From a virus, in the IMG/VR virus record IMGVR_UViG_3300045256_000567: DNA of 64,000 nt, one strand, 5' to 3'. Position numbers and translations under genes: made by a program. Below the pieces are notes generated by a model. That model was not told the DNA's origin. It ran no database searches and was given only the letters and a program-made list of their open reading frames with translations. Positions 31,444 to 63,937 of this stretch are shown one piece after another (the stretch's first letter is position 1; each line of letters starts with the position of its first letter).

Positions 31444-31968
31444 TCAAAACACTTCAAAAAAATTAAAATGACTATAACTGTAGAATTTAATTTCTTTTAT
31501 GTATTTATTTTCCTGAAAATTTATTTTTTTATTACTAAAAAGTAAAAATGAAGATCTAATAACACATCTTGTTTTTCCTTTGTATAGTTCTATAGTTTCA
31601 TTAAAGTCTATAGAATCTGCTATTTTGTTTAAATCATAGTTATATTCTTTTAAATCAAAAAAGGCGTTTTTTGTAACTTCACTATTTGGACTTTTATAGA
31701 TAGGTTTTTCATTATAAAATTTTATTTTCAAATCAATGTTTATTCCCGAAAAATCAAGAAAAAACTTTTCTAATAATTTAGAAAATTCGTTTTCGTGTAT
31801 CTCATAATAATTTGTAGTTTCTTTAATATTTGGGGCGTTTTTTTCTACATATACATAATAGATATTAGAATCTTTCCTGCATGTATTTATTGCGTAGAAA
31901 TTTCCAAATTTGGAAACGATTTTATCTAATAAAGTTTTTTTTAATTCAAGTAGCGAGTTTTTGCGCAT
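31444..31968 (-). CDS. C-terminal-Phe family protein (ends FFEVF)
   Basis: TATACT-6 nt-ATG leaderless start; similar to 34164-34685. Confidence 0.8.
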   Translation of the reverse strand: MRKNSLLELKKTLLDKIVSKFGNFYAINTCRKDSNIYYVYVEKNAPNIKETTNYYEIHENEFSKLLEKFFLDFSGINIDLKIKFYNEKPIYKSPNSEVTKNAFFDLKEYNYDLNKIADSIDFNETIELYKGKTRCVIRSSFLLFSNKKINFQENKYIKEIKFYSYSHFNFFEVF

Positions 31969-32017
31969 AGTTTCAGTATACAGCGTTTACTTTTAGAAAA
32001 ATTTTTCAAACCAAAAA

Positions 32018-32533
32018 TCAAAATATACTAACAACGTTAGCGGAGCGAAAGATAGAAAATTCAATAAAGTTTAAAATGTAGTCATCATTTAACTCACATC
32101 TACCGTTTGGGTACAAAAGTATAGATATTTTTACTAACAAATTTTTTACTTCTTTTATATCTTCCGGTTTTTTGAAGTTAATAGTTTTTAATCCATACAG
32201 AAGCTTTTCTAAATCTTTTCCAAAATCGGCGAAATTTAAAGATAGAATAGTATATTCCAACAAGGCATCATCGCAATATGGGTAAATAAATACTTTTGTT
32301 GTACCCAATCGATCTTTAATATTTTCTGTGTTAATAATTTCATTAAACCTGTCTGTACTTAATGGATAGTTTTCTGAATGACCGTCTGAATAGGTTACTG
32401 TAATACCGCGAATATAATTTGAGAAAAAATTATTTAAGTAGTTAGCTTCTAATGAATAATTTTTAACAATTTGAAGTAAAAAATAATCAGCAACTTCATC
32501 AAAAATATCATCAAAAGTTGTGTAGGTAAGCAT
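32018..32533 (-). CDS. C-terminal-Phe family protein (ends VVSIF)
   Basis: TTGACC-18-TACACT-5 nt-ATG. Confidence 0.8.
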   Translation of the reverse strand: MLTYTTFDDIFDEVADYFLLQIVKNYSLEANYLNNFFSNYIRGITVTYSDGHSENYPLSTDRFNEIINTENIKDRLGTTKVFIYPYCDDALLEYTILSLNFADFGKDLEKLLYGLKTINFKKPEDIKEVKNLLVKISILLYPNGRCELNDDYILNFIEFSIFRSANVVSIF

Positions 32534-32626
32534 GCTTTAGTGTACCACGACACATACTAGCAGGTCAAGTACACATATAGAGGAATAGCGTTTACTTTTG
32601 AAAAGTGGGAAAAAATAAAAACCCCC

Positions 32627-32746
32627 TTATTCGGGGGTTTTAGAATCCTTGGATTCAGAATTCTTTGATTCTGCATATCCTTCTTCCTTCAATTCCTTTA
32701 AAATCCATCTCGAATCTTCAATTGAGATACCAGATTCCATCAAATC
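32627..32746 (-). pseudogene. 5'-truncated paralogue of the 46-aa gene at 29583-29723
   Basis: Reads DLMESGISIEDSRWILKELKEEGY...KTPE*; begins exactly at the mini-IS right end. Confidence 0.8.
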
Positions 32747-32912
32747 GTGACGACTCCTAATTCTAAAGAATTAGGCTTCTCGCATTTAGCGAAGGCTCCG
32801 TCCAAGCCATTATCGGTATTTTCTTATTTTCCCGATAATTACCTTGAATCTTATGATTCAAGTACCTACCAGCATTTTCAGCTTTGTAGGATTTGGTGTG
32901 CTTATCTTGCAC
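32727..32912 (-). ncRNA. Putative TnpB omega-RNA (guide GATTTGATGGAATCTGGTAT)
   Basis: TGGTATAAT promoter, several hairpins and the tnpB 3'-end scaffold; guide assigned from known IS200/IS605 biology. Confidence 0.55.
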
Positions 32913-33599: not shown

Positions 33600-34106
33600 C
33601 TAAAAAAGTTGTACAACTGAAAATGTCCTATTTATGCGTATACTTATTCCAAGTACTTTACAGTCTTTGTCTTTCTTTAATATTTCATTTAGTGATATAT
33701 CTTTTTTAATACTGTAAAACATAGAAACTCTTATATTTATTTCCCCGTTATGTATTTTTTCTATTTCTCTTTTAGCTTCCGAAAATCTATCTACTAGAAA
33801 GAAATCAAATAATCTTTCTTCATTATGAGAAAAAAAGTTATTTAGAGTATTTACGTATGTGTCTTCCTTTGTGTAAGAAACAACAATATCTACAGATTCA
33901 AATTTTATGTATTTTTTATATTTTCTTTCTATCATTTCTATTGTTTTTTTATCTACTAAAGTAAACGGCATTGATACGTCATCTAGTCTCTCCAATTCCA
34001 ATAAATATAAATCCTTTTCCTCCTTAGAAAATAGTTTAATAAATTCGCTTTCAAGTTCATAGTTAATTACCTCCACTAGTAAATTTGCTTTATTTATTAT
34101 ATTCAT
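33600..34106 (-). CDS. C-terminal-Phe family protein (VVQLF)
   Basis: ORF with G-rich SD. Confidence 0.8.
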   Translation of the reverse strand: MNIINKANLLVEVINYELESEFIKLFSKEEKDLYLLELERLDDVSMPFTLVDKKTIEMIERKYKKYIKFESVDIVVSYTKEDTYVNTLNNFFSHNEERLFDFFLVDRFSEAKREIEKIHNGEINIRVSMFYSIKKDISLNEILKKDKDCKVLGISIRINRTFSVVQLF

Positions 34107-34163
34107 TTTTCCCCCCTTCTAGTTTTGGTACACTATATATACTATAGATATATGGAGCAGTGG

Positions 34164-34685
34164 CTAGAATAAGGTTGCTGTATCTATAAACCTGTACATA
34201 TAATAAGATAAATTTTTTATATACTCATTTTCCATTATTCTTATACCGGCGTCGCTGTAAAAAATAAATGAATACCTTACAGTGAGTTTATTTTTGCTAG
34301 TTACAGACTCTGTAATATCTAAAGGTTCAAAGGATTCAAATACTTGTTCTATGTTATAGTCATAATCTTCTAAACTAAATTCTGAATATGATTTGTATAA
34401 AGGAAAATGTGCCTGTGTGAATGGATTACTATCGTATATTTGTATTCCAACTTCTACTGCCTCAAAATCAAAAAGATATTTATCTAATAGCTGTAAAAAT
34501 TCTTCTTTATCAATATCATGTTCAAGTTCTTCTGTTTCCTCAAAGCGAAAATGAATGAATTCTGTAAAAAGTTTAAATAATTCTTTATTTTTATTATTAA
34601 TATTTAAAATTTGATTTTCAGTAATTGCAGATTTAATACTTTTTAAAACTTTGCTTTCTAGCATATCAGTGGCTTCAGGCATCAT
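34164..34685 (-). CDS. C-terminal-Phe family protein (TATLF)
   Basis: ORF with GGGAG SD. Confidence 0.8.
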   Translation of the reverse strand: MMPEATDMLESKVLKSIKSAITENQILNINNKNKELFKLFTEFIHFRFEETEELEHDIDKEEFLQLLDKYLFDFEAVEVGIQIYDSNPFTQAHFPLYKSYSEFSLEDYDYNIEQVFESFEPLDITESVTSKNKLTVRYSFIFYSDAGIRIMENEYIKNLSYYMYRFIDTATLF

Positions 34686-34701
34686 ACAGTTTTTCCTCCC
34701 T

Positions 34702-35109
34702 TTAAAACAGCTCTCTAGTAAGTATAATTATATTAAAACTCACAAATACTTTTTTACAGGGTACATCTTCAAAAATTTTTTTATCATTTTTAACTTCACA
34801 TGAAAAATGAAAAATAGTTTTAAAATAATTTTCTTTAATCATTTTTAAAGTATGCAAATGAACAAAGTCATTTAGTGTTTTTAATTTTTTAGTTGATGAA
34901 AACGTGGATAAGGTTTTTGTTAATTCAGTTTCGTCAATAACATAATTTCTAAAGGATATTTTTTTTACAATAGCATCATTGGCGTTATTTCTATATTTAA
35001 CGTCGGGAATATATATAACTTCGTGTACGTAGGTGCTATAATTTTGATAAATAGTAGATTTAGCAGTGTTAATTAACTCATTTTTTATCTCTTCTATAGT
35101 TCTGTTCAT
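34702..35109 (-). CDS. C-terminal-Phe family protein (TRELF)
   Basis: ORF with GGAGG SD. Confidence 0.8.
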   Translation of the reverse strand: MNRTIEEIKNELINTAKSTIYQNYSTYVHEVIYIPDVKYRNNANDAIVKKISFRNYVIDETELTKTLSTFSSTKKLKTLNDFVHLHTLKMIKENYFKTIFHFSCEVKNDKKIFEDVPCKKVFVSFNIIILTRELF

Positions 35110-35123
35110 TTTTATCCTCCCTC

Positions 35124-35708
35124 TTAAAACAGTTCTTTTACATCTACGAGATACGTGAACATAACTTCTATGGGCAGTGTTTTTATGTGTTTTATTTCTA
35201 TGTTATTAATTGGGTACCAAGTAACACTTGTTTTGTGGTTTTTTAAAATAGAATACAGCTCAAATACATCTTCTTTATTTCCTATCAAAGGAAATTCTAT
35301 ATCTAATCTAAAAAAATGACAATTAAGAAAATCTTGTAATGAAAATACATATCTTGTCTTATACACTTCAATTATTCTATAAAATGCTTCCCTTAACTTA
35401 AAGTTAGCAAGATTTGTTTTTTTATCAAATACAGTAAAGTCTCTGAAATATGACATTATATCAACAAAAATATTATTTTCTATTACCTCAAATCTATTTA
35501 ATATATCTGTTAGTTTTTCGTATTCGTTATTTTTTATAACCGCCCACAATAAAGATCTATTATCTCTTTTTTTATCAATAAATTCTATAGTAATTTTTTC
35601 AGATATAGAGTTGGGAACTAAATAAAAATCTCTAAAATATTCTTCCGTTAAACACACCAAATCATTTCTTAGTGTTTCGGATATTTTTTTTGTTTCATCA
35701 AGCTTCAT
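35124..35708 (-). CDS. C-terminal-Phe family protein (VKELF)
   Basis: ORF with SD; paralogue of 35733-36338 (WYP/WFP, FFRL/FFQL). Confidence 0.8.
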   Translation of the reverse strand: MKLDETKKISETLRNDLVCLTEEYFRDFYLVPNSISEKITIEFIDKKRDNRSLLWAVIKNNEYEKLTDILNRFEVIENNIFVDIMSYFRDFTVFDKKTNLANFKLREAFYRIIEVYKTRYVFSLQDFLNCHFFRLDIEFPLIGNKEDVFELYSILKNHKTSVTWYPINNIEIKHIKTLPIEVMFTYLVDVKELF

Positions 35709-35732
35709 TTACACACCTCCCCCTACAAACTT

Positions 35733-36338
35733 CTAAAATAATTTGTTTATTTTTGCTCCGAATAAAAACTCTATTTCTACAAAAACATTGTTGCTATTAT
35801 TGAAAGTTATTTCTTTATATGGAAACCAGGACGATTTTATAGTGTTGTTTCTAAGAACGTTAAACAATTCAATCATGTAATTTGTGTTAGTTCTTTCTAA
35901 GAATACAGATTCTAAGCGCAATTGAAAAAATTGTTTTTCTAGATAATCTTCACTTAGAATATGTATACTTTTGTAACTGTCCATTAGTTCGAAAAAACTT
36001 TTATTTATATCAAAATTATGGATTGGCTTAATTAAATCATCAAAAAATATGTAATTGCTGTAATATGTATTTAATTTAGTGTTAACATTTTTTTGTACTT
36101 CAAGTTCATTTAAAATATCTTCAGCTAATAACAAAATATCTTTACAGGTAACTAATTTTGTTATAGTTCTATCAATCCCGCTTCCTAAAAGACGATCTCC
36201 ATTGTCAATAAATGTTACAAAAATATTTTCTTGGCACAAGCTAACACAATTATTAAAATTATCAAAATATTTTTCAATAGCGTAACAAAATTCATTTTTA
36301 AAATGATAAGCTTGATTTTTTATTTCGCTAAAGTTCAT
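35733..36338 (-). CDS. C-terminal-Phe family protein (INKLF)
   Basis: ORF with AGGAGG SD. Confidence 0.8.
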   Translation of the reverse strand: MNFSEIKNQAYHFKNEFCYAIEKYFDNFNNCVSLCQENIFVTFIDNGDRLLGSGIDRTITKLVTCKDILLLAEDILNELEVQKNVNTKLNTYYSNYIFFDDLIKPIHNFDINKSFFELMDSYKSIHILSEDYLEKQFFQLRLESVFLERTNTNYMIELFNVLRNNTIKSSWFPYKEITFNNSNNVFVEIEFLFGAKINKLF

Positions 36339-36352
36339 GGTTTACCTCCTGT

Positions 36353-36781
36353 TTAAAACAAAGGTAAAATATTAAACAAATGTTCTTCAAACACATGATA
36401 ATTTTCATCATGAATGTCTAAAGAAATTTTAATTTTTCCAACTTTTTGAACTTCAGAAATTTCTTTATAAATTTTTTCAATGAATTTATAAAAGTCATTT
36501 ATTTTATAATCAAAGTAAATGCTAGAAATATAAAATGATTCTCCGCTTTTAGCGAAATTAGACGTACCATCCCAAAGTACAAAGCTAATATTATAAGAAA
36601 TGTGCAAGTCTTTTAAATTCTTTTTTTCTTTTCTTGGACTTACATATTCGTCTATTTTTTTTAGAAAGTGAGTATTTACATATTTATTTAAATCAAATAA
36701 TTGAATTCTATAAGGTTCAACTATATCTTTTAATCTTTTTACTTCTTTTAAGATTTCCTGGTTTTTGTTAGGCTTGTACAT
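36353..36781 (-). CDS. C-terminal-Phe family protein (ILPLF), leaderless
   Basis: TTGACT-17-TATCCT-6 nt-ATG at 36781. Confidence 0.8.
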   Translation of the reverse strand: MYKPNKNQEILKEVKRLKDIVEPYRIQLFDLNKYVNTHFLKKIDEYVSPRKEKKNLKDLHISYNISFVLWDGTSNFAKSGESFYISSIYFDYKINDFYKFIEKIYKEISEVQKVGKIKISLDIHDENYHVFEEHLFNILPLF

Positions 36782-36860
36782 GACTATAGGATACACCCAC
36801 AGCAGTCTACAGTCAAGCCTGCTGCTACTTAGCGTTTATTTTTTTCGCCTAAAACTAGTA

Positions 36861-37469
36861 TTAAAAAATATTTTGTAAAGTAATGTTTTTATAAAAAATA
36901 CAAGTTACTAAAAGATTCCCCGCTTCAAGTATTTCAATCATCATACTTTTGTCAAATTCATTAAATGAATCCGTGGAAAAAAATATATCTTTATTGTTTT
37001 CTATAAAGTTTTTTATTTTATTTTTTTCATTTTTTAGTTCAAAGTCTACGTGAGATTGTATAAAGTTTATATTTATATTTGATTTTATACAATCATTGAT
37101 TGATTTATTTATTTTTAAAAGAATATTCTTTTCGTTTCTATGTAATTCCTCATTTAAATAATTAAAGTTATTTTGTACGTCTAGGGGTCCCTCTTCAACA
37201 GATATGTATGTGTATATTTTTGAATAATCTACTTTTATTTTTCCTATAGAATTTAGTACTTTTCTGTATAGAGGATTGTTTGCATCTACTGAAGCTATAA
37301 ACAATTCTCCGTAATCTCTTCTATTTATATCATTTCTATTTTCTACTTCATCGAAGAAAATATAAAAAATATCTTCTTCATTTAAAATTACTGATGGAAG
37401 GTTTTTATTAATTATTTTTTTAAGGGATAAGTGAAATCTTTCAGCAATTCTTTCTAATTTTGTTAACAT
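36861..37469 (-). CDS. C-terminal-Phe family protein (LQNIF)
   Basis: ATG 37469 preceded by GGGG SD. Confidence 0.8.
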   Translation of the reverse strand: MLTKLERIAERFHLSLKKIINKNLPSVILNEEDIFYIFFDEVENRNDINRRDYGELFIASVDANNPLYRKVLNSIGKIKVDYSKIYTYISVEEGPLDVQNNFNYLNEELHRNEKNILLKINKSINDCIKSNININFIQSHVDFELKNEKNKIKNFIENNKDIFFSTDSFNEFDKSMMIEILEAGNLLVTCIFYKNITLQNIF

Positions 37470-37487
37470 AACTAACCCCACAAAAAA

Positions 37488-38048
37488 TTAAAAAATCTCA
37501 TCTAATTTTACCGTTATATAACCAGTAAATTTTACAATACTTGAATCATTAAAGTTAGTATTAAAAATTTCATTACGAATTTCGTACCACACTTCATTAT
37601 TTATTTTATCATTAATAGACAGAATGTATTTTCTGAAAGATTCAACGAGGATTGAATCAATAGTTATATCTTTATATTCATTAGAAAATGAACATAACAC
37701 TCCTTTACTAGTAGAATTAGATAGATGTTTTGCTAATTTATTTAACCCCCTATAATAAATTCCGGTAGGTCTGGTTACTTTGTTCAATCTATAGTGCATG
37801 TATTTAGTACCATTTAATATCCTAACTGAAACACTTTTTTTGCTGAAAAGAAAGTTGTTGAAAAAAGACAGTAGTAAATAAAACTCTTTAGTTCCCAAAT
37901 CAACAGAAATACACCCATTTAGTCCACTAAAATTTTTTCTTTTATAGAAGCATAGCGATAATGTTTTTTCTAAAGTTATAATTAAAAATCTTGGAAGTGT
38001 TTTTTTGAATTTTTCTACAACAATCTCTATATCCGTTTCTTTTATCAT
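37488..38048 (-). CDS. C-terminal-Phe family protein (LDEIF)
   Basis: Clear paralogue of 38062-38619. Confidence 0.8.
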   Translation of the reverse strand: MIKETDIEIVVEKFKKTLPRFLIITLEKTLSLCFYKRKNFSGLNGCISVDLGTKEFYLLLSFFNNFLFSKKSVSVRILNGTKYMHYRLNKVTRPTGIYYRGLNKLAKHLSNSTSKGVLCSFSNEYKDITIDSILVESFRKYILSINDKINNEVWYEIRNEIFNTNFNDSSIVKFTGYITVKLDEIF

Positions 38049-38061
38049 TATCCCCCCTAAT

Positions 38062-38619
38062 TTAAAAAAGTTGTTCTAGTTTTAATGATATGTAACTAGT
38101 ACAAAACATATCACTTGAATTTATAAAGTAAGGTCGCAAAATTTCTTCATTAAGGTCTCTAAATAAATCGTCACTTATCTCTCCCTTTAAAGAAGAAACA
38201 TAATTTACAAATGAATTAACAATTATTGGATCCAGGTCTATGTGTGAATATTTATGAGAAAGTGTGCAAACTAATTGTTCATTACTTATACTAGATAAAT
38301 TTTCTACTAATTTTTTTATACCTCTATAATAAACCTTATTATTGTTTCTCACAATATCGATTCGCTCATATGAAAAATCATGTCCCTTTAAAATTCTTAT
38401 ATTTATACTTTGTTTGCTAAAAAGACGTTCCTTAAAAAATGATTGTATTAAATCAAATTCTCTGGTTCCTAAAGTTACAACAATAATTCCTGTAACATCA
38501 TTTATATATCTTTTTCTGTAAAAATTAAAAACCATTACTTTTTCTAATTCAGTAATCAAAAAATTAGAAAACCTGATTTTAAACTTCTCTGCTACTATTT
38601 CTATATCACTATTATTCAT
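38062..38619 (-). CDS. C-terminal-Phe family protein (LEQLF)
   Basis: DIEIV.EKFK, LGT.EF and YYRG shared with the neighbouring gene. Confidence 0.8.
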   Translation of the reverse strand: MNNSDIEIVAEKFKIRFSNFLITELEKVMVFNFYRKRYINDVTGIIVVTLGTREFDLIQSFFKERLFSKQSINIRILKGHDFSYERIDIVRNNNKVYYRGIKKLVENLSSISNEQLVCTLSHKYSHIDLDPIIVNSFVNYVSSLKGEISDDLFRDLNEEILRPYFINSSDMFCTSYISLKLEQLF

Positions 38620-38660
38620 TTTGTCCTCCCTTTTTAGAGAAGTTCTTCTAAGCTTTTCTT

Positions 38661-39143
38661 TTAAAATAGCGGAGAAAAAGAAAATTGTACTTTCATAAAA
38701 TAAAGAACTTTTTTTGCCTCTTCAATATTTTCTGAAGGAAATAAATTCTTCAGTTCTTTTAATTTTTTCTCGTCAATAAAAAAATGAGATGTAAGATAAA
38801 AATTTACTAATATAGCAGTATCGGCACTATTATAAAGAAAAAATCTAATGGTATCAAAAAATCCAGTTTCAGAATTGAAACATTTTATCTTTGATTTATT
38901 TTCTTTGTGAGAAACAGAAAAATCATAATATGAAGGAGGTACATTAGAAAATAAAGTAGATATAACAATATAATTCTTATCTGTATTTTTTATTTTCTCA
39001 TTTTTAATTTTTTTGTAGCGCCCTTCGTCATATCTGTAAAATGAAATACTTATAATATCAAGTTCTGTACTAACATAATATCCTTCCGCAAAATATTTTA
39101 TTTTTTGTTGTATTCTTTCTTTTTCTTTTATCATTATTTTCAC
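38661..39143 (-). CDS. C-terminal-Phe family protein (FSPLF)
   Basis: ORF in operon. Confidence 0.8.
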   Translation of the reverse strand: MKIMIKEKERIQQKIKYFAEGYYVSTELDIISISFYRYDEGRYKKIKNEKIKNTDKNYIVISTLFSNVPPSYYDFSVSHKENKSKIKCFNSETGFFDTIRFFLYNSADTAILVNFYLTSHFFIDEKKLKELKNLFPSENIEEAKKVLYFMKVQFSFSPLF

Positions 39144-39148
39144 CCCCT

Positions 39149-39721
39149 TTAAAAAAGTTCTTCTAAAGAAGTTTCAACAAAGAATGTTATTTCTATTTGA
39201 TTCGTACGCTTAAACTCCGTTGAAGATATCTTCTCTTCAATCTTATTGAATAGACTATTGCTAATGTTATTTTTTAGAGCAAGCAAATTTTTCTTTATTT
39301 TCTGCAATTCTTCTGGATACACGAATAACCAAAAAACCTTAAAGAAAAAACAATGTACATCTTCTTTCGATCTATCTAAAAAATTTGCTATACGCTTATG
39401 TCCTGTATAATATTTATTATCTTTTATGGGATATAAAATTTCGGTTTTATAATTTCCCGGTTGACTAATTCCTATACGAATATGGTTTTCGCTATATGTT
39501 GGTTTTATTAATATAGCGTCAATAACCTTATTTATAGATTCTACATTCTCTTCTACGTATAAATACCAGGAATTATTGAATCTTAATAAATCACGGGTTC
39601 TTTCATAAAATGAGATTTTTACATAAGTTTTATGAATAGTGAGAAAGCGATTTTTCTGAATTTTTTTACTTATCTTCTTTACCTGATTTTCTAATTCCAC
39701 AAGCAGGCTGTATGCATCCAT
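39149..39721 (-). CDS. C-terminal-Phe family protein (LEELF), leaderless
   Basis: TTGACT-17-TATGCT-6 nt-ATG. Confidence 0.8.
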   Translation of the reverse strand: MDAYSLLVELENQVKKISKKIQKNRFLTIHKTYVKISFYERTRDLLRFNNSWYLYVEENVESINKVIDAILIKPTYSENHIRIGISQPGNYKTEILYPIKDNKYYTGHKRIANFLDRSKEDVHCFFFKVFWLFVYPEELQKIKKNLLALKNNISNSLFNKIEEKISSTEFKRTNQIEITFFVETSLEELF

Positions 39722-39904
39722 GTCTACAGCATACAGCCTGCAAGTGCTACAGTCAAGTGTAGCACGTCATAGCGTTTACTTTGGCGTAGCGTTTACTTTG
39801 GCCTAGCAGCTAACCTAGTACACGCCATAGAACAATATATAGGAATAGCGTTTACTTTTTGAAGTCTTTTTCTTTCGATTTGCGAAACAAAAAATATTCC
39901 GAGT

Positions 39905-40224
39905 TTAAAACATACTCCTTATTTTTACCTCTACGCCAAAAGATATATTTGTGACGACTCCTAATTCTAAAGAATTAGGCTTCTCGCATTTAGCGAAGGC
40001 TCCGTCCAAGCCATTATCGGTATTTTCTTATTTTCCCGATAATTACCTTGAATCTTATGATTCAAGTACCTACCAGCATTTTCAGCTTTGTAGGATTTGG
40101 TGTGCTTATCTTGCACAAGTTCATTATACCATAGAATTTCAATTTTTGCATTCATCCTATGCTTAAAAGCGTAGGCTTTCTGCAAACTGTTCTGTAAATT
40201 GTTTATTTCATCAAAACCATTCAT
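39905..40224 (-). pseudogene. Remnant of a C-terminal-Phe family gene whose middle is replaced by the mini-IS
   Basis: MNGFDEINNL before the left end and NISFGVEVKIRSMF* after the right end. Confidence 0.65.
39951..40193 (-). mobile_element. 243-bp non-autonomous IS200/IS605 derivative; probable stand-alone omega-RNA cassette
   Basis: Core identical to the 32747 copy; left end follows TTAC; guide AAATATATCTTTTGGCGTAG. Confidence 0.85.
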
Positions 40225-40238
40225 ATGTTTATCCTTTT

Positions 40239-40796
40239 TTAAAATATTTCTTCCATTTTAAATTTTGTAGATAAAGAAACTTCTAAGAAATTTAATCGTT
40301 TTATAAAATCCTCTTTTCTCAATAGATTAGTTATTTTTTCAACTGTTTCTGTGTTTATTTTATTGTTATGAATGTTTATAAAATCTTTTAGCGATCCAAA
40401 AAACTTTTCGTCAATATCACAATCTCCACCTATCGTGAGGTAAAATAAAAGCTTATCTTTGTTTTTGCAAAAGTTTTTTATTTGTTTTAGTCCTTTATAT
40501 CTATTAGTTTTTTTATTTTTTTCCAATATAAACTTATAATATTTGTCGTTGTAATATATATTTATATATATAAGATTATTTGTGTTAATGTAGCTCTCTA
40601 AAAAAGAAAGTAATATATCAAAACCTTCATCTTTTTCTGCTATATGTATATCTTTACCATATACAAGAGAGTAATCTTTATTATTTTTGTGCTTACAATA
40701 AAAAGTAATTGAAATAGATTTAGTTTCATTAGAGTACATTAATTGATAAACTGTATTTTGTATTTTTTCTATAGCTTCCTTTATTTCTTTATACAT
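40239..40796 (-). CDS. C-terminal-Phe family protein (MEEIF)
   Basis: ATG 40796 with AGGTGG SD; paralogue of 40826-41392. Confidence 0.8.
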   Translation of the reverse strand: MYKEIKEAIEKIQNTVYQLMYSNETKSISITFYCKHKNNKDYSLVYGKDIHIAEKDEGFDILLSFLESYINTNNLIYINIYYNDKYYKFILEKNKKTNRYKGLKQIKNFCKNKDKLLFYLTIGGDCDIDEKFFGSLKDFINIHNNKINTETVEKITNLLRKEDFIKRLNFLEVSLSTKFKMEEIF

Positions 40797-40825
40797 AATA
40801 TTTATCCACCTTTCTAAGTTAGCAA

Positions 40826-41392
40826 TCAAAACATTAGTTCAGCTTTTACCCTAACATACAGATTAGATTCTAAGAAGTTTATTATTTCTTCAATATTGGC
40901 GTTCTTTACAATTTCATCTAGTTGTTTGAATATTGTTTTATTTATATAGCCCCTTGAACTATATAAAAAATTTTTTAGGGCCATAAAAAACTCTTTATCA
41001 ATATCCTCCAATCCTATCAATCTAAAATGAAAGAAAATAGATTCTCGCCCCTTACAAAATCTTATAATATCCTTCATTCCTCTACTATATTTACCAGTTC
41101 TTTTATCTTTGGTTAATGTAAAGCCGTAGTAAATATTATTTGCTTTTACATTAATAAGTATACGGTTGTTTATTTTTATAAAATTATCTAAAAATTGTAA
41201 AACTAGATCAAAACCTTTATAATTATCTTGTAAATATACACTTCTTCTATATGTAACATAATATTTTCTACCCTTTTTATGTTTATGATAAAACATAAAT
41301 GAACAATCTTTTTCTAAATCGTGAAAAATATGTTCAGGAAAATTACTCTGTATTGCTTGTAAAGCATTTTGTATTTCTTTATCTAAAATCAT
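40826..41392 (-). CDS. C-terminal-Phe family protein (AELMF)
   Basis: GFD..L.FL and FCK motifs shared with neighbours. Confidence 0.8.
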   Translation of the reverse strand: MILDKEIQNALQAIQSNFPEHIFHDLEKDCSFMFYHKHKKGRKYYVTYRRSVYLQDNYKGFDLVLQFLDNFIKINNRILINVKANNIYYGFTLTKDKRTGKYSRGMKDIIRFCKGRESIFFHFRLIGLEDIDKEFFMALKNFLYSSRGYINKTIFKQLDEIVKNANIEEIINFLESNLYVRVKAELMF

Positions 41393-41404
41393 AAAACACC
41401 TCCC

Positions 41405-41938
41405 TTAGAAAACACTAGTTATTTTTAGTTTTGTACTAAATATAGTTGCTGCAAAATTTATTTTGTATTCATTTCTTTTTACAGTCAGTGTTTTCATTGC
41501 ATTATCAAAAATATCTTTATTTATTTCTTTTTTAATTGAAATTAGATAATCTTTAAAGTCATCTAGGACTTCTCCATTTACATAAAAATGTCCTTTTTTT
41601 CTCAAAATTAATAATAAATTTTCTTTTTTATTGCAGAAATTTATTAACTTTCTTTTTATGTAATTATTGTATTCAAGTCTTATATTGTTGTTTTTATACA
41701 ATTGATGATTTGACTCTAATGAAAAATAATAATCAAACATAATGTATTTTTCTAGAAAGGAAAAAATTTTATCAAACTCTTTGCTATTTCTAAGCAAAGC
41801 AATACTATCTATAGCATAGACTTCTTCGTATTTTCCTGCATGATAAAAGTTTAGAGAAAAATGTTCATAAATATTTTCTATATATGAATGAACAAGATTA
41901 TCATTAATGTCTTCTACTATTTGATCTAGTTCAATCAT
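41405..41938 (-). CDS. C-terminal-Phe family protein (ITSVF)
   Basis: ORF with SD. Confidence 0.8.
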   Translation of the reverse strand: MIELDQIVEDINDNLVHSYIENIYEHFSLNFYHAGKYEEVYAIDSIALLRNSKEFDKIFSFLEKYIMFDYYFSLESNHQLYKNNNIRLEYNNYIKRKLINFCNKKENLLLILRKKGHFYVNGEVLDDFKDYLISIKKEINKDIFDNAMKTLTVKRNEYKINFAATIFSTKLKITSVF

Positions 41939-41947
41939 AGGGGTCTC

Positions 41948-42535
41948 CTAAAATATTTCGTTTATTGTTACCTTTAGTTCAAAGTATACATAAATATAAT
42001 TGGTTTTAGGAAAACGTATTTTAGTAAAAATTCTTTCTGTTATTTTTTCAGTTATAGATTTTTTTATTTTTCCTTCCATTGATGTCATATAGCTTTTTAA
42101 TGATTCCCAAAATTGCCTATCAAAAGGAATTTCGCAATCTATATACAATTTAAAATACTTATCATAACGACCAAATTTATCTTGTTCGTTTATATATTTT
42201 ATTAGTCTTTCTAATCCTTCTGTATGTATAGTATTATCTTTAGTTTGAATGGGAATTTTTTTATTATCTTCTTCGTAAATAATTGCAGTTATGTTTCTAT
42301 TTTCGCTAATATATTTATCAAAAAAGTTAAACAACAAATCAAACTCTTCTTTATTTAGGAAATCATGATATGAATGTATATAAATATTTCCATATACTTT
42401 GAGTAGAATTTTTCCTATTTTTTCGTAAAGAGAACTACAAAATTCTTGGTTTATCTCAAAACTAATATGTTCAGGAATCTTACCTTTTAGATTATCAAAA
42501 ACCCTATAAACAGATGCTTCTTTCGCGTTGTTCAT
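41948..42535 (-). CDS. C-terminal-Phe family protein (INEIF)
   Basis: ORF with SD. Confidence 0.8.
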   Translation of the reverse strand: MNNAKEASVYRVFDNLKGKIPEHISFEINQEFCSSLYEKIGKILLKVYGNIYIHSYHDFLNKEEFDLLFNFFDKYISENRNITAIIYEEDNKKIPIQTKDNTIHTEGLERLIKYINEQDKFGRYDKYFKLYIDCEIPFDRQFWESLKSYMTSMEGKIKKSITEKITERIFTKIRFPKTNYIYVYFELKVTINEIF

Positions 42536-42673: not shown

Positions 42674-43414
42674 TCAGAATATTTCTTTCTTTATAAATGT
42701 TTTTGAATTGGGAACGTCTATGAAAACAAATTCCATGTCAATATTTTTTAATTTATTCATCATAGGAGAGTATTTTAGTTTTGACCCCTCGAGCATTTCT
42801 ATAAAATGTTTTTTGTAACCTATCATTCTATAGTTGGATTGAATTGTAAATTGAAATTTTGGTGAACGAAAAAATATCTTAGAATCTTGTTTTTTAGGAT
42901 TATAATGTCTAATTGCTTCTACTGTTAACTTTATTGCATCAATAAAACTATTTAGAGAATCTTTATTAAATACACCATCTCGATTAATGAATAGAAATTC
43001 TGTTATTCTATAATAATTTAAAAGATCGTATTCGATAAACGTTGGGTGATGCTTTAGAAGAGATTCTAGATATTCATCTCTATCTGTAATTAAACTAAGA
43101 ATTATAACAAATTCTTTTATTGGAAATGTTGTTAGATCTATTCCTACGGATTCTTTTATTTCAGAAATGTCTTCTTTTATTTTTAATTCCCCCGCTACTG
43201 TACTTCTAATTAATCCAGTTGCTGTTGATGTTGAATTTGGATCAAAAGCTTCTATGGAGATTATATTTTGCGATTTTTCATTATTAAAATGTCCGTAATC
43301 GTATGGGTATGATTCTAGTATAAAATCATCATTTTCTATTGATTTTTCTATTTCCCGCTCAATTTGTTCAATTATTGATTTGTAGACTCTTAGGTAATTA
43401 TTTAAGTTGCTCAT
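42674..43414 (-). CDS. C-terminal-Phe family protein (KKEIF)
   Basis: ORF with SD. Confidence 0.8.
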   Translation of the reverse strand: MSNLNNYLRVYKSIIEQIEREIEKSIENDDFILESYPYDYGHFNNEKSQNIISIEAFDPNSTSTATGLIRSTVAGELKIKEDISEIKESVGIDLTTFPIKEFVIILSLITDRDEYLESLLKHHPTFIEYDLLNYYRITEFLFINRDGVFNKDSLNSFIDAIKLTVEAIRHYNPKKQDSKIFFRSPKFQFTIQSNYRMIGYKKHFIEMLEGSKLKYSPMMNKLKNIDMEFVFIDVPNSKTFIKKEIF

Positions 43415-43432
43415 CTTTCTCTCCCCCTTTTT

Positions 43433-43693
43433 CTAAAAGATGTAATCTAAGTTAACTGCTAATCTATAATAGTATCCTAAATTAATTTTTTCATTAACAA
43501 TATTTAAGTTATTTTTTGCGTGGTCTAATAAATCGTCTATTGAATTTAAAATACATTTTTCATTTTTGGGATAATTATATGTTCTTAATGTAACTTCATA
43601 ATTTTTAATTATTTTGTCCGCTATTTCTTTTTTAATTGGTTGTTTTGCGAATATTGTAATAAATAACTCATCTGTATTTTTATTTTTTTTCAT
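43433..43693 (-). CDS. Short C-terminal-Phe family protein (LDYIF)
   Basis: ORF with SD. Confidence 0.75.
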   Translation of the reverse strand: MKKNKNTDELFITIFAKQPIKKEIADKIIKNYEVTLRTYNYPKNEKCILNSIDDLLDHAKNNLNIVNEKINLGYYYRLAVNLDYIF

Positions 43694-43704
43694 CTTTTCC
43701 TCCC

Positions 43705-44286
43705 CTAGAAGATTTCCTTTATTTCGATTAGGTATTCTTTTTCTTCCATTATGTAAAACAAAATGCCTCTGTCATGACTTATTGATTTAATTCTTTTTAT
43801 TGCTCTTATAGAATCTTCGGTTTCTGAAATATAAATTATTAAATCTTCATTTTTTATAATTTCTTTTACTGGAGCTAGGGCTTCAGTAACAATAACATTT
43901 GAAAAAAATGCATGTATTTTATATATATTTTTGTTACTATTCATAAACTCATATACGTCATTTTTTATTTGGTTTAGAAATTCTTTATCAAGAATAGAAT
44001 ATTTAGACATAGGTTTTACATAAGATAACTCTCTATATAAGCCGTCTTGGAAACAGAAGGTTATTGAAAGCCTAAATAGGTAAAAGTACTCAGCAATACT
44101 TTTTTTAATGCAATCCTTTAAATCTTCAAACCCTTTAAAATTTCCTCTAATAAATATAGATGGAGTTGAATTATCCAATTTTAAATCTAGAGTGTTTCTT
44201 ACTAATTCAGCGTTTCCTAAAAAGTAATCTTTATATAGGAATCCTAAGATTTCGTGTATTTGGTTTTCTATTATTTTTGTGTCCAT
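43705..44286 (-). CDS. C-terminal-Phe family protein (IKEIF)
   Basis: ORF with SD. Confidence 0.8.
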   Translation of the reverse strand: MDTKIIENQIHEILGFLYKDYFLGNAELVRNTLDLKLDNSTPSIFIRGNFKGFEDLKDCIKKSIAEYFYLFRLSITFCFQDGLYRELSYVKPMSKYSILDKEFLNQIKNDVYEFMNSNKNIYKIHAFFSNVIVTEALAPVKEIIKNEDLIIYISETEDSIRAIKRIKSISHDRGILFYIMEEKEYLIEIKEIF

Positions 44287-51495: not shown

Positions 51496-51512
51496 CTTTA
51501 CCCCCCCCTAAT

Positions 51513-52025
51513 TTAGAAAATAGCACTTCTTTCATACTTTTCGTGTATTATAAATACATAATCATTATTTATGTTTTTTCTTGTAGGTCTAAAAAAATGT
51601 AATATAATTTGTATATCTAAACTGTCCGCCCCTTTAGAACAAATAAAATCTTTAGCTATATTAAAGACATTTTCTATAGATGGAATAACATAATTGTCAA
51701 TAAAAATAAAGCCTCCCGTTATATCAATTCTTTTCAAAATCACTCTTTCAAAAAGTCTTTCTTTAGAAAATTTATTTGTCCCCTCAACATAGATGTTTAT
51801 AAAGCAAGAATCGTAGAAAAAAATGTCATTAAATTTGCATAAATTACCCAAAAGTTCTTCTGTTGAAAAAAAATCCGTATATTCTTGTCCTATATCAACA
51901 GTATGATAACTTTTGTTACTTAGAACATATTGCCGAGTTTCCCAAAAATCATTAACGTGTTCAGTAAAGCTTCTCTTAGAACCAATTATTTTATTAAACA
52001 TTTTTATCATCTTTTCCATTGACAA
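51513..52025 (-). CDS. C-terminal-Phe family protein (RSAIF)
   Basis: FIDNYVIPSIENVFNIA. Confidence 0.8.
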   Translation of the reverse strand: MSMEKMIKMFNKIIGSKRSFTEHVNDFWETRQYVLSNKSYHTVDIGQEYTDFFSTEELLGNLCKFNDIFFYDSCFINIYVEGTNKFSKERLFERVILKRIDITGGFIFIDNYVIPSIENVFNIAKDFICSKGADSLDIQIILHFFRPTRKNINNDYVFIIHEKYERSAIF

Positions 52026-52030
52026 CCTCC

Positions 52031-52291
52031 CTAAAACATTAGTAAGTCATTTATAATTATCAAGTCTACATCTATCATCTTTATATTATTCGCACCTGTA
52101 AACAACTTCAAATTCTTATTTATAATCATACATTTCTTTGTTTCAGTTTTTACTGATTCAATCAGCTCATCAAAACTAATTTGATTTAATTTCTCATCTA
52201 TAAAAAACGAATTTTTATTTGAATCTATGACTTTTTTTATCTTTTCTAGATCATTAATGCCTCGTACCTTTAGATTTATATTTTTTCTCAT
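52031..52291 (-). CDS. Short C-terminal-Phe family protein (DLLMF)
   Basis: ORF with SD. Confidence 0.75.
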   Translation of the reverse strand: MRKNINLKVRGINDLEKIKKVIDSNKNSFFIDEKLNQISFDELIESVKTETKKCMIINKNLKLFTGANNIKMIDVDLIIINDLLMF

Positions 52292-52304
52292 TTTCCCCCC
52301 CTAA

Positions 52305-52805
52305 CTAAAACAAAATTCCATGATTTACAAACTGATATACTATCGCAAAAGCTTCAAAATCTTTTTTAGAGTGGATGTTTATATGAAATACTATTTTTGT
52401 AAATCCAAATTTTTGCCTATTTTCGGTAATACCTTGAGACAAGAAATTTAGTGTCCTATCAAATAGTTCAAGATTTGCTCTAACTACAAAATCTGAAAAA
52501 ATTATGCATTTATCAAATCCTATAAATGGGGGGTTCTGTATTTCCAACATAACTTGAATAGTGTCTAAATCTTCAATTTTCTCTAAATAAGAGAAAATTT
52601 CTGAAAAACCTTTATCCCTGTTTTCAAGATATTCATTTGAAAGTTTGCTATGATTTGCTCTAGAATCCCCATAAGATATTTCTACGCAACTATCATATAA
52701 AATATGAGTAGTTGATAAATTGCCAATTACTCCATTTATTGATGTATCTAGTTTTTTCACTAAACTTTCTAATTTTGTAATCTGCCTATGGGTGCTCGTG
52801 TCCAT
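52305..52805 (-). CDS. C-terminal-Phe family protein (HGILF), leaderless first gene of the operon
   Basis: TTGCGC-17-TATGAT-6 nt-ATG. Confidence 0.8.
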   Translation of the reverse strand: MDTSTHRQITKLESLVKKLDTSINGVIGNLSTTHILYDSCVEISYGDSRANHSKLSNEYLENRDKGFSEIFSYLEKIEDLDTIQVMLEIQNPPFIGFDKCIIFSDFVVRANLELFDRTLNFLSQGITENRQKFGFTKIVFHINIHSKKDFEAFAIVYQFVNHGILF

Positions 52806-61876: not shown

Positions 61877-61892
61877 AAGCTACTAGAATTAT

Positions 61893-63123
61893 AGCATAGT
61901 TTGCAGAAAGCCTACGCTTTTAAGCGTAGGATGAATGCAAACAAACGCTTTGAATATGGTATAATGTTGGTAGGTAGTAATGATCAAGTCTTTCAAGTAC
62001 CGACTGTATCCAACCAAGCCTCAGATAAAGGATTTAGAAAAAACCTTGTTTCTGTGTCGTCAACTGTACAATACTGCTTTGGAACAAAGAAGGGAATTGT
62101 ACAAAAACTACAAAAAGTCTATCACCTACTATGAACAAGATAAACAACTGCCTAAAATAAAAACAGAGCGTCCAGAATACAAGAATGTAAATGCACAGGT
62201 TCTTCAGGATGTGCTGAAAAGGGTAGACAAAGCCTACCAAGGATTTTTTAGGCGTATCAAGAAAGGTGAAACACCTGGTTTACCAAGATTCAAGGGTGAA
62301 AATAGATACGATAGTTTCACCTTTCCTCAGGTAAGCAAATCAGGAGTCAAGATTCAAGAAGGTAAAAACAGAATTTTGGTTCATAAGATTGGTTCTATCA
62401 AATGCAAGTTTCATAGACCGCTTGAAGGTCAAATAAAGACAGCTTCTATAAAAAGGGAGAATGATGAATGGTATATAATTTTCACCTGTATCACAGAACC
62501 AAAAAAACTTCCTACAAACCAAGATGCAGTTGGAATAGACCTTGGTACTAACCCAAACTTCCTAACCACCTCTGACAGTGAAATGGTTCCTGCTCCTAGG
62601 TATTTCAAGAAGTCTGAAAAAACACTCTCCAAAGCACAGAAAATAGTTTCAAAGAGAAAACCTGGTAGCAACAGAAGAAACAAGGCTAAGAAATTGGTTG
62701 CCAAAATCCACAAGAAAATAGCAAACCAAAGAAAGGATTTTCATCACAAGGTAGCAAAGGACTTGGTAAATAAGTATGGCACTATAGTACACGAAGACCT
62801 AGGTATAAAACAACTCGCCCAAACTAGAACAGTTAAAGGTATCCTAGATGCAGGTTGGGCTCAATTCCTAGCAATACTTGCCTACAAAGCGGAGGAAGCT
62901 GGTAGGCAAGTAATAAAAGTAGACCCAAAATATACAAGCCAAGATTGTCCTGTTTGCGGCAACAGAGAAAAACACCCACTTTGGGTACGTACCTATACCT
63001 GCGCCAAATGCAATACAACCCTTCACCGGGATATTGCAGCAGCACAAAATATCTTGGCTAAGGCTCGGACGGAGCCTTCGCTTCTTGCGAGAAGCCCAAT
63101 TCTTTAGAATTGGGAGTCGTCAC
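61893..63123 (+). mobile_element. tnpB-only IS200/IS605 element, copy B, 1231 bp
   Basis: Same ends as copy A, opposite orientation. Confidence 0.9.
61980..63107 (+). CDS. tnpB: RNA-guided endonuclease TnpB
   Basis: Intact D-E-D RuvC triad; near-identical to copy A. Confidence 0.95.
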   Translation: MIKSFKYRLYPTKPQIKDLEKTLFLCRQLYNTALEQRRELYKNYKKSITYYEQDKQLPKIKTERPEYKNVNAQVLQDVLKRVDKAYQGFFRRIKKGETPGLPRFKGENRYDSFTFPQVSKSGVKIQEGKNRILVHKIGSIKCKFHRPLEGQIKTASIKRENDEWYIIFTCITEPKKLPTNQDAVGIDLGTNPNFLTTSDSEMVPAPRYFKKSEKTLSKAQKIVSKRKPGSNRRNKAKKLVAKIHKKIANQRKDFHHKVAKDLVNKYGTIVHEDLGIKQLAQTRTVKGILDAGWAQFLAILAYKAEEAGRQVIKVDPKYTSQDCPVCGNREKHPLWVRTYTCAKCNTTLHRDIAAAQNILAKARTEPSLLARSPIL

Positions 63124-63638
63124 CTTAGATATGACTTAACGTTAAATTTTAATTTAACGGAAAAAATTCTCTCTACAGGATTTATTATAGAAACCTTTAT
63201 AGCTAAAGGAAAAAAATCTTGATAAACTAAAGTTTCTTTTATTTCTATATTTTCTCCAGAATTTACTAAAAAATCATTTACATGTTTTTGCAAAGAAATA
63301 ATTTCTCCTGTTTCGCTATAAAAAAAATGTGTGTTGTTCTTTTGGAAAAAAGATAGATTCAAAAACTCTACTTTTATATTTGCCAACATTTCTTGTGAAA
63401 ATTTATCTTGTAAATTTATTGCATCAATATAGCTAGAAAGTTTTATCTTATAAACAGAAAAATTTCCGTCTAGCACATTTACCAGATAAATAAATTTATA
63501 TTTTTCACTTTTTATACTTTCATATTCATCAAAATAAAATTCAAGTTGTTCTGCTTCTATACCTACAGAACCTCCTAGTGAATTCTTTATTTCGGATAGA
63601 TATGGTTTTATAACTGTTATTTGATTTTCTGAGATCAC
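63120..63638 (-). CDS. Hypothetical protein; stop codon supplied by the IS right end
   Basis: 172-aa ORF; its TGA is the complement of the terminal TCAC. Confidence 0.75.
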   Translation of the reverse strand: MISENQITVIKPYLSEIKNSLGGSVGIEAEQLEFYFDEYESIKSEKYKFIYLVNVLDGNFSVYKIKLSSYIDAINLQDKFSQEMLANIKVEFLNLSFFQKNNTHFFYSETGEIISLQKHVNDFLVNSGENIEIKETLVYQDFFPLAIKVSIINPVERIFSVKLKFNVKSYLR

Positions 63639-63679
63639 ATCAAATAAATTATACTAGAATTTGCAGAAAACCGGAAATC

Positions 63680-63937
63680 TTAGAAAATACTTACACATTT
63701 TATTCTAAAAAACAAATCTACTGAAACGGTGATATATATTCTTTTCTTATTTATTTCTTCCTCGGTGAAATTATAAAAATTTTTAATATTTTCAAACCAT
63801 TGACCACATAACTTTAATCGAATATTGTATGAATTTAAAACTATTTTCATAAGCGCGTTTTCTTTGTAAAAAAAGTCAATTATATCTTGTATATTGTCTT
63901 CATCTCTAAAGTTAACGTAATTCGATACTGTAGACAA
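63680..63937 (-). CDS. C-terminal-Phe family protein (CVSIF); start uncertain
   Basis: 85-aa ORF. Confidence 0.6.
   Translation of the reverse strand: MSTVSNYVNFRDEDNIQDIIDFFYKENALMKIVLNSYNIRLKLCGQWFENIKNFYNFTEEEINKKRIYITVSVDLFFRIKCVSIF

Follow-up and report, generated by a model that had tools for sequence, protein, structure and literature searches.

A tandem array of diverged phenylalanine-ended proteins in a phiYS40-like phage: a C-terminal strand end with lineage dialects and, possibly, a shared partner

Why should some three dozen neighbouring viral genes, whose products can be aligned only within small subgroups, nearly all end in the same amino acid? The question is raised by a 64,000-nucleotide stretch of DNA from virus record IMGVR_UViG_3300045256_000567 of IMG/VR (the whole stretch is called the window below), the right-hand half of which carries an array, amounting to about a third of the window, of mostly small genes whose proteins end in a hydrophobic residue followed by phenylalanine (Phe, F). 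In an initial annotation of this DNA, 36 such genes had been counted on the right and none in 1-31.3 kb. Open reading frames (ORFs) were now called mechanically (at least 60 amino acids (aa), greedy non-overlapping choice), and the count was reproduced: 36 of the 46 ORFs in 31.4-64 kb are Phe-ended, as against 0/20 in 1-31.3 kb (binomial p ~6e-32, with Phe making up 7.1% of the residues in the right-hand region). The Phe codons (TTT 24, TTC 12), the stop codons following them (TAA 16, TAG 12, TGA 8) and the codons at positions -2 and -3 are all mixed, and the constraint therefore acts on the protein, as had been claimed. Over the 36 tails, residue -1 is always F, residue -2 is I in 16, L in 14, V in 3, M in 2 and A in 1, residues -3 and -4 are largely E/D/S/N, and -5 and -7 are hydrophobic, which gives the consensus h-x-h-x-h-[DE]-[DE]-[IL]-F (h, hydrophobic). 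The bodies had been put at mostly 135-250 aa; this holds for the bulk (29/36 lie within 135-206 aa), the full range being wider (85 to 482 aa). Only small subgroups are linked by phmmer, in agreement with the earlier impression. Inside the array, as described before, are located an AAA+ ATPase that does not carry the tail (it ends in AIMS) and a HExxH-vWA protein that does (DRIF). Coordinates are collated in Table 1.

The relationships of the phage were determined from its DNA and proteins. The window (25-33% G+C) had no DNA match in the phage collection, and its proteins are recorded on a 153-kb contig in a large protein database. The ATPases of YS40_Isch, TMA and phiYS40 are 44-45.5% identical to that of the window over 99% of its length (tblastn), and several further window genes have phiYS40 homologues. 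Judged from these sequence comparisons, the window belongs to a large tailed phage that is a distant member of the phiYS40 group. Layout, ATPase/HExxH-vWA pair, size class and Phe end recur in three Thermus phages, phiYS40, TMA and YS40_Isch, where the array genes (roughly YS40_089 to YS40_138) flank YS40_107 and the ATPase YS40_108; the window differs from phiYS40 in the moderate identity of the ATPase (45%), in the lack of a DNA match, in having most of its subgroups unshared, and in the inverted order of the pair.

In phiYS40, 43 of 169 ORFs are Phe-ended, with 34/58 in 80-120 kb versus 9/111 elsewhere, the latter being the background rate. The related metagenomic loci were all located by means of the ATPase. 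A single ATPase query found no match in IMG/VR, and a two-sequence ATPase alignment picked up L002, a 157-kb IMG/VR contig on which 22 of the 32 ORFs around the ATPase are Phe-ended. Two further metagenomic lineages, L009 and L010 (49% and 53% identity in the best tblastn segment), carry arrays with other ends: 15 of 22 proteins in L009 are F-ended and 5 L-ended, nearly all after Tyr and basic residues, and in L010 the terminal residue is L or I in 5/5. Counted over 31 L009 ORFs, 17 are F-ended and several more L-ended. On the metagenome contig L007, which carries orthologues of 34702-35109 and 36353-36796, all six ORFs are F-ended. When the best-populated subfamily of the window was used for an exhaustive profile search, only 13 relatives were retrieved among 1.84 billion representatives, each of them F-ended (13/13), and the family is therefore confined to the small clade of phiYS40 phages. 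In a word search of the large database, 40826-41392 had a single orthologue and 50466-50981 had none.

Within this clade, a few orthologous groups unite the window with phiYS40 (49899-50456 with YS40_124/_120, 56614-57330 with YS40_109, and 57428-58477 with YS40_110); YS40_109 and YS40_110 adjoin the ATPase in phiYS40, and their window counterparts lie outside the main run. An apparent link between 20012-20344 and a tailed phiYS40 protein was lost in BLASTP. The larger expansions are lineage-specific (seven members in the window, nine in L009, separate groups in phiYS40), which fits rapid turnover. In the database records, the phiYS40-type array genes are annotated merely as hypothetical, apart from three labelled as 'glycosyltransferase' (YS40_112-114), and this label is without Pfam support.

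Neither signal peptides nor membrane segments were found in the array proteins: no member has a hydrophobic run of at least 12 residues within its first 40 aa, and the N-termini are strongly charged (mean of 6.7 charged residues in the first 20). Searches of Pfam, PHROGs, NCBIfam and PADLOC gave no family for the tailed proteins at E <=0.001. In alignment A8 (15 sequences, 16-53% identical to the first) the terminal F alone is invariant, with M1 nearly so; no polar residue is conserved in this subfamily, which argues against an enzyme. In outer-membrane barrels the C-terminal Phe belongs to the fold and also serves for recognition, so both roles can coexist in one residue. The array tails share with the beta-signal of these barrels an amphipathic last strand ending exactly in Phe; reading the terminal Phe as an outer-membrane beta-signal is ruled out by the absent signal peptides, the charged N-termini and the helices of the structural model described below.

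An AF2 model of 40826-41392 was obtained with high confidence (pLDDT 90.6, pTM 0.83). The predicted fold is alpha/beta, with the element order H, E-E, H, E-E, E, H, E, H-H-H, E (six helices): an N-terminal helix, two long beta-hairpins with a helix between them, more helices, and a last strand that comprises residues 173-186 of 188, the last residue block averaging a pLDDT of 90. Known folds were not recovered with this model. Foldseek against the PDB gave no match at E 1e-3 or better; the best Z in the VIA search was 5.2, which is below the usual noise level, and the Neisseria DNA mimic DMP12, considered as a fold relative, was rejected at Z 5.0 as lying within noise. The fold search of the ESM Atlas reached a TM of 0.36 or lower, its feature search likewise gave no convincing match, and a PDB profile search for the tailed proteins found nothing.

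Matches were obtained in BFVD, where Foldseek returned four at E <=1e-3 (best E 4.7e-5, probability up to 1.0). Each of the top 12 is an unnamed entry, and together they fall into four accession blocks; three of the matches fit YS40_114, _116 and _122 (ABJ91508, ABJ91510 and ABJ91516) by length and accession spacing, and these proteins belong to sequence clusters other than that of the query. Such matches across subgroups are support for, not proof of, a common fold. The sequences of 119 array proteins from five lineages were also examined for periodicity. The strand-type hydrophobic moment of the last 14-20 residues is 0.31-0.34, versus an internal mean of 0.24, and the helix-type moment peaks at 0.33-0.35 (internal mean 0.29) at 36-48 residues from the end; this profile matches the helix-then-strand C-terminus of the model. 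The size class, the tandem layout and the visible recent duplications fit one expanding family. From these strands of evidence we infer an alpha/beta architecture shared across the subgroups.

The initial annotation had taken the terminal residues for a free docking tag. The model assigns them instead to the end of a 14-residue sheet strand, and since this final strand is integral in the model and strand periodicity extends across the set, the tail is predicted to be the end of a structural strand and not a flexible, SSB-like docking peptide (SSB, single-stranded DNA-binding protein). Residues -5 and -7, which face inward, share their register with the Phe at -1. Two further properties are superimposed on the strand. 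In well over a hundred proteins the chain has the hydrophobic pair as its very last element, an extension being almost never seen; and the last four residues follow a dialect that changes from lineage to lineage: [DE][DE][IL]F in the window, x-E-V-F in phiYS40 and L002, [KR][KR]Y[FL] in L009 and x-x-h-[LI] in L010. These dialects change in concert across sequence-unrelated groups. Composition cannot explain them, as is evident from V/(V+I+L), which is 0.18 in the bodies of the window and 0.24 in those of phiYS40, versus 0.10 and 0.73 at position -2, and from the acidic share at -3/-4 (0.84 in the window, 0.71 in phiYS40, 0.05 in L009), which compares with 0.42-0.50 in the bodies. The orthologous groups of the window and phiYS40 keep the dialect of their own genome (I/L versus V), although they are older than the split. 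The fixed stop point and the dialects are what a commonly read C-terminus, or co-evolution with a shared reader, would give; founder effects would be the alternative.

Shared ends of other kinds were seen beside these tails. Three phiYS40 array genes (4600-5169, 7647-8159 and 9179-9763 in locus L001; YS40_134, _129 and _126) have a second common tail, ...NSVP(S/TS/TPHPSV); the L002 orthologue of YS40_129 is without an NSVP-type tail and has a hydrophobic IL end. In Vibrio phage pVa5 (L014; 1450-2702, 5167-5415, 14267-15361), many ORFs of 72-103 aa near an ATPase homologue have another motif, h-L-L-[EDN]-x (MLLEQ, HLLNA, ALLDV, LLEDK, LLEDE, LLEDV, ALLEA). Common C-terminal endings in early small-gene arrays may thus not be unique to the phiYS40 group.

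On the basis of the directly observed terminal pattern, clade distribution, strand character of the tail, lack of known families and folds, and dialects, one joint reading is preferred, and its chances of being correct in full are judged to be even: the array would be a clade-specific, amplified, non-enzymatic early gene family built on a new alpha/beta scaffold, with an obligatory hydrophobic-Phe-COOH strand end that serves a shared partner too. According to this reading, the approximately 35 genes would represent a multigene family of the phiYS40 clade, tandemly amplified and extremely diverged, whose members would be soluble, cytoplasmic, non-enzymatic proteins, probably expressed early from host-type promoters. 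Their common architecture would consist of an alpha/beta body that closes, at the C-terminus, with an amphipathic helix followed by a long amphipathic beta-strand, the strand ending in [aliphatic or aromatic]-Phe-COOH. For other viral multigene families, paralogues are believed to bind different host targets, and here, too, the variable surface of each paralogue may bind a different target of host takeover or defence. The terminal hydrophobic pair would fix the C-terminal strand within a heat-stable fold. Since chains consistently stop at this point and the four final residues change together within each lineage, the same end would probably also be contacted by one shared partner, be it another copy, a machine of the phage or a factor of the host.

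Several results weigh against this reading. A single family was not shown by sequence comparison: global and local hhalign comparisons of the seven best-populated subgroups were no better than reversed decoys, and iterative hidden Markov model searches left the subgroups unmerged, with 57 groups remaining. A modest excess was found by phmmer with reversed decoys (202 real versus 143 decoy matches at E 1e-3 to 0.1). The common fold thus has one confident model with cross-subgroup BFVD matches in its favour and profile comparison at decoy level against it; the TM-scores of these matches are low (0.30-0.42), their identities are inferred from accessions and lengths, and a second model, for the 50466-50981 subgroup (3 sequences), reached a pLDDT of 47.8, so that the common fold rests on the single confident model. 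Among relatives, F, L, I, V and Y all occur as the terminal residue, which is the kind of variation expected of an ordinary core position. Finally, if each lineage re-expanded its array from one founder, the dialects need no partner.

The last two points lead to the alternative that survives best, namely that the tail is purely structural: one fold, in which the hydrophobic-Phe pair is a buried plug locking the last strand, with no reader and with the dialects as founder effects. The confidently modelled, integral final strand, the strand periodicity throughout the clade and the register of the -1 Phe with the hydrophobic residues -5 and -7 are all as expected for such a plug, as are the interchange of F, L, I, V and Y among paralogues and orthologues and the lineage-specific expansions. 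A plug would also be useful at hot-spring heat, and sequencing runs labelled as hot-spring or microbial-mat metagenomes, with no RNA run listed among them, contain the window in full and may be its source samples. Ordinary C-terminal strands, however, need no stop after a hydrophobic pair, yet extension is almost never seen; residue -2 is hydrophobic despite lying on the polar face of the strand; orthologous groups older than the window/phiYS40 split still follow the dialect of their own genome; and in L009 the charge at -3/-4 is reversed across several groups that are unrelated in sequence. A structure-only tail is considered unlikely, while retaining a real chance.

A different function was suggested initially by the neighbouring ATPase and HExxH-vWA protein, described as a MoxR-type AAA+/vWA pair. 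The AAA+ core stood up to analysis, as did the adjacent vWA-like gene. The GDRGIGKT (Walker A) and VILDE (Walker B) motifs of the ATPase are invariant in five lineages, phrog_1297 was matched at E 3.6e-45, and the Pfam cut-offs were passed for AAA (22.1 bits, cut-off 21.2) and AAA_14 (31, cut-off 27). The MoxR assignment was not established: the MoxR-type family AAA_5 scored 19.6 bits, below its cut-off of 22, AAA_3 was not listed, the best PDB profile match was midasin (E 1.2e-6 over 42 residues), and NCBIfam gave weak RFC-like matches only. The label 'MoxR-type' is plausible. In the HExxH-vWA protein, DUF2201_N was recognised at 24.3 bits (cut-off 23.2) and phrog_32906 at E 1.5e-34; VWA_2 reached 17.7 bits, below the cut-off of 27, and the MIDAS motif DxSGS is present. 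H77, E78, H81, H86, D362, S364 and S366 are invariant in the five lineages, and the HExxHxxxxH domain is a putative metallopeptidase-like domain. The Phe end of this protein, to which significance had been attached, is peculiar to the window, since the relatives end in E, N or M, and it is probably coincidental. Like the known MoxR AAA+/vWA pairs, of which RavA-ViaA and the pair of the large phage 0305phi8-36 (PMC2147016) are examples, the window pair consists of a P-loop AAA+ protein and a vWA-like protein with a MIDAS motif; it differs from them in the sub-threshold AAA_5 score and in the extra HExxH domain (DUF2201_N) of the vWA partner.

The pair is adjacent and embedded in the arrays in all five lineages (window, phiYS40, L002, L009 and L010), its order being vWA then ATPase in the window and ATPase then vWA, with a 16-nt gap in one operon, in phiYS40, L009 and L010. 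In the window, each of the two genes has its own promoter and leader. Over the last ~120 nt before the vWA gene, most of the sequence is the same as ahead of the ATPase gene; both upstream units contain a conserved TAAACGCTATTC word, then a TTGAC-17-TAT(C/G)AT promoter with an upstream TG, and then a leader hairpin GCAGAACCCTAA...TTAGGGAATTCTGC just before the Shine-Dalgarno site. The predicted folding energy is -14.7 kcal/mol for the ATPase leader (z -2.95) and -8.6 kcal/mol for the vWA leader (z -0.2). From these elements the two genes look co-regulated, apart from the array operons. The 9-mer TTCTGCAAA, present at 10 window sites versus 1.6 expected (including 46917-46925, 48549-48557, 55196-55204, 61900-61908 and 63660-63668), was found in the ATPase and vWA leaders and in TG-n-TATAAT promoter-like units.

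These features bear on the proposal that the pair is a hub that reads the tail, the tailed proteins being its adaptors or clients, or else substrates of a split FtsH-like unfoldase-metallopeptidase that clears early proteins in a timed manner. The embedding of the pair in the arrays of five lineages despite its inverted gene order, the duplicated promoter-leader units set apart from the array operons, and the invariance of the HExxH and MIDAS residues speak for it, and co-working AAA/vWA pairs are established for RavA-ViaA (PMC3893208, PMC10585395). On the other side, the co-occurrence of pair and array, which had been suggested as a check and was found in all five lineages, amounts to one phylogenetic event in one clade whose loci were reached through the ATPase; it is a conserved neighbourhood and not independent evidence of interaction. 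The ATPase homologue of the N4-like phage pVa5 (23% identity) has a single F-ended protein among 29 neighbours, the modelled fold does not present the tail as a free peptide, and no excess of charge-swapped columns paralleling the basic L009 tails was found in the ATPase or the vWA protein (2 vs 2; 1 vs 0). Co-folding of the HExxH-vWA protein, the ATPase and 40826-41392 gave scores of 0.11 and 0.07 versus a mark of 0.32, which carries no weight either way on binding. A hub of this kind appears rather improbable. The same low standing is given to its extension into a phage-private C-terminal address code, in which one receptor per lineage, most plausibly the AAA+/HExxH-vWA pair working as a chaperone or as a split FtsH-like unfoldase-protease, would recognise the ends of some 35 early proteins of related structure and would co-evolve with the dialects EE[IL]F, xEVF and [KR][KR]Y[FL].

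Related annotations lie elsewhere in phiYS40: a ClpP protease (22302-23015) stands beside replication genes, outside the arrays, and a run of 'conserved bacterial protein', SpoVR and serine kinase genes (45187-51312; L015/L016) is presumably a PrkA-YeaH-SpoVR-like module and a possible second AAA/vWA-type set.

If the proteins were not one family at all, unrelated folds would each have gained the same C-terminal address, which would then be a true sorting signal on heterogeneous cargo. That the subgroups, apart from the tail, resemble each other neither in sequence nor in profile is in keeping with this, as is the terminal Phe as sole invariant residue; the common size, the tandem layout, the helix-then-strand C-terminus, the Foldseek matches that reach other subgroups and the tandem duplication visible within subgroups make it very improbable.

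The tip of bacterial SSB, D-D-D-I-P-F-COOH, sits on a long disordered linker. Mimicry of a host docking peptide, either this tip (acidic-I-P-F-COOH) or the clamp motif (QL[SD]LF), in competition for replication or repair partners, would fit the free Phe-COOH after acidic residues that window and phiYS40 tails (acidic-acidic-aliphatic-Phe-COOH) have in common with SSB and T7 gp2.5, a resemblance in charge and last residue, but it is dismissed as scarcely credible given that the tails end a structured strand with no disordered linker, that Pro at -2 and Gln at -5 each occur in 0/36 (-5 being hydrophobic and -4 mostly acidic), that the L009 tails are basic and those of L010 without Phe, and that 35 mimics of one peptide are hard to explain.

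The array genes themselves are organised in operons of Shine-Dalgarno-coupled genes behind -35/-10 promoters that abut the start codon. In the operon upstream of the pair (48735..52805), the gaps are 5-26 nt, mostly with a GGAGG/GGGGG Shine-Dalgarno site, and TTGCGC-17-TATGAT precedes the ATG of the head gene by six nt. The two genes that form the left edge of the array, 32018-32533 and 31444-31968, look leaderless, as a -10 element lies ~6 nt before the ATG (plus a -35 for 32018-32533). Promoters abutting the start codon are described as common in Deinococcus-Thermus (PMC12340547). The promoter assignments rest on reading of the operon heads; a consensus promoter scan of the window, which did pick up the promoters of the ATPase and vWA genes, was not enriched (126 found versus 126.5 expected from shuffles).

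Table 1. Positions of the Phe-ended genes, the ATPase/HExxH-vWA pair and associated elements in the window.
Feature	Coordinates	Strand	Size (aa)	C-terminus	Basis or remarks
Upstream operon, counted as nine Phe-ended genes, eight listed	48735..52805	-	164-197, plus one of 86		ORF calls and C-termini
Upstream operon member	52305-52805	-		GILF	
Upstream operon member	52031-52291	-		LLMF	
Upstream operon member	51513-52025	-		SAIF	
Upstream operon member	51001-51495	-		ENAF	
Upstream operon member	50466-50981	-		EEIF	
Upstream operon member	49899-50456	-		EYLF	
Upstream operon member	49339-49872	-		EDIF	
Upstream operon member	48735-49328	-		NEVF	
vWA promoter and leader	48539..48734	-			TTGACC-17-TATGAT with TG, hairpin-containing leader, Shine-Dalgarno end
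HExxH-vWA protein	47090..48538	-	482	DRIF	HExxHxxxxH N-domain, Q/N-rich linker, C-terminal vWA-like domain
ATPase promoter and leader	46903..47089	-			After terminator-like hairpin of vWA gene; TTGACG-17-TATCAT with TG, hairpin leader, Shine-Dalgarno (alignment A7)
AAA+ ATPase	45916..46902	-	328	AIMS	Walker A GDRGIGKT, Walker B VILDE
Six Phe-ended genes directly downstream of ATPase	42674..45836	-			ORF calls, sequence subgroups
ATPase-downstream gene	45336-45836	-		EDLF	
ATPase-downstream gene	44864-45352	-		ESLF	
ATPase-downstream gene	44300-44842	-		SDLF	
ATPase-downstream gene	43705-44286	-		KEIF	
ATPase-downstream gene	43433-43693	-	86	DYIF	
ATPase-downstream gene	42674-43414	-	246	KEIF	
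Seven-member subfamily	37488..42535	-	177-195		phmmer cluster (alignments A2/A8)
Subfamily members	41948-42535, 41405-41938, 40826-41392, 40239-40796, 39149-39721, 38062-38619, 37488-38048	-			
TnpB C-terminal fragment	39967-40224	-			Interrupts seven-member subfamily
Unrelated Phe-ended gene	38661-39143		160	SPLF	Interrupts seven-member subfamily
Seven further Phe-ended genes	33600..37481	-	135-206		
Further gene	36861-37481	-		QNIF	
Further gene	36353-36796	-		LPLF	
Further gene	35733-36338	-		NKLF	
Further gene	35124-35708	-		KELF	
Further gene	34702-35109	-		RELF	
Further gene	34164-34685	-		ATLF	
Further gene	33600-34106	-		VQLF	
Array left edge	32018-32533	-	171	VSIF	
Array left edge	31444-31968	-	174	FEVF	
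Longer gene outside main run	55228-55944	+	238	FNIF	
Longer gene outside main run	56614-57330	-	238	EEIF	
Longer gene outside main run	57428-58477	+	349	LAIF	
Phe-ended ORF at window edge	63680..63937	-	85	VSIF	

The ten ORFs in 31.4-64 kb that are not Phe-ended comprise two TnpB genes, two TnpB C-terminal fragments, a 68-aa Zn-ribbon, the ATPase, three other proteins and an array-like ORF of 172 aa (63120-63638, ending in SYLR) beside the Phe-ended ORF at the window edge. The intact TnpB genes (53997-55124, minus strand; 61980-63107, plus strand) encode OrfB_IS605 and Cas12f1-like TNB domains. The C-terminal end of TnpB (...TEPSLNARSLIL) is repeated in two short ORFs inside the Phe-tail arrays (32763-32981 and 39967-40224, both on the minus strand), which carry a like small hairpin (32897-32913 and 40101-40117, respectively); no tnpA was seen in the window. 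The zinc-ribbon ORF has a paralogue (33155-33361 and 30454-30657, minus strand; 67-68 aa, CxxC...CxxC), and phiYS40 homologues are YS40_095 and _088; the region that holds these ORFs (28-33.6 kb) is G+C-richer (up to 40%) and contains many G-run hairpin terminators. The 182-aa protein of 56027-56575 (plus strand) has conserved counterparts in phiYS40 (YS40_137) and in L009 (5636-6346); an N-terminal motif (IDPG...A.A) looks like that of a RuvC-type resolvase, with no Pfam match.

The multigene families of poxviruses and African swine fever virus (ASFV) consist of tandem, fast-diverging early or host-interaction genes. The Phe-ended arrays resemble them in comprising tens of nearly dissimilar tandem paralogues with lineage-specific expansion, no enzymatic signature and presumed binding of host proteins, a likeness that is one of analogy and not of homology; they differ in that only the very C-terminus is conserved, with an obligatory stop and a four-residue lineage dialect. 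No description of the set or of its Phe end was found in a full-text literature search, the reach of which did not extend to the phiYS40 genome and transcription papers or to the TMA paper.

The arrays make up about one fifth of the genes in every phiYS40-like phage, including phages that can be cultivated on Thermus thermophilus and have been sequenced since 2006. Should the tail do no more than anchor the fold, the family would show how a heat-stable scaffold loses all sequence similarity and yet keeps one terminal residue. If it is read by a shared partner, it would represent a new viral C-terminal recognition code, and the dialects make the specificity of the partner testable by tail swaps; should the address-code reading be true, a virus-encoded system of a new type, for client sorting or timed turnover, would be at hand. 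In each case, the arrays would constitute a large untapped pool of thermostable proteins, probably directed at host takeover or defence, on which genetics and biochemistry can be performed in the phiYS40/Thermus HB8 system.

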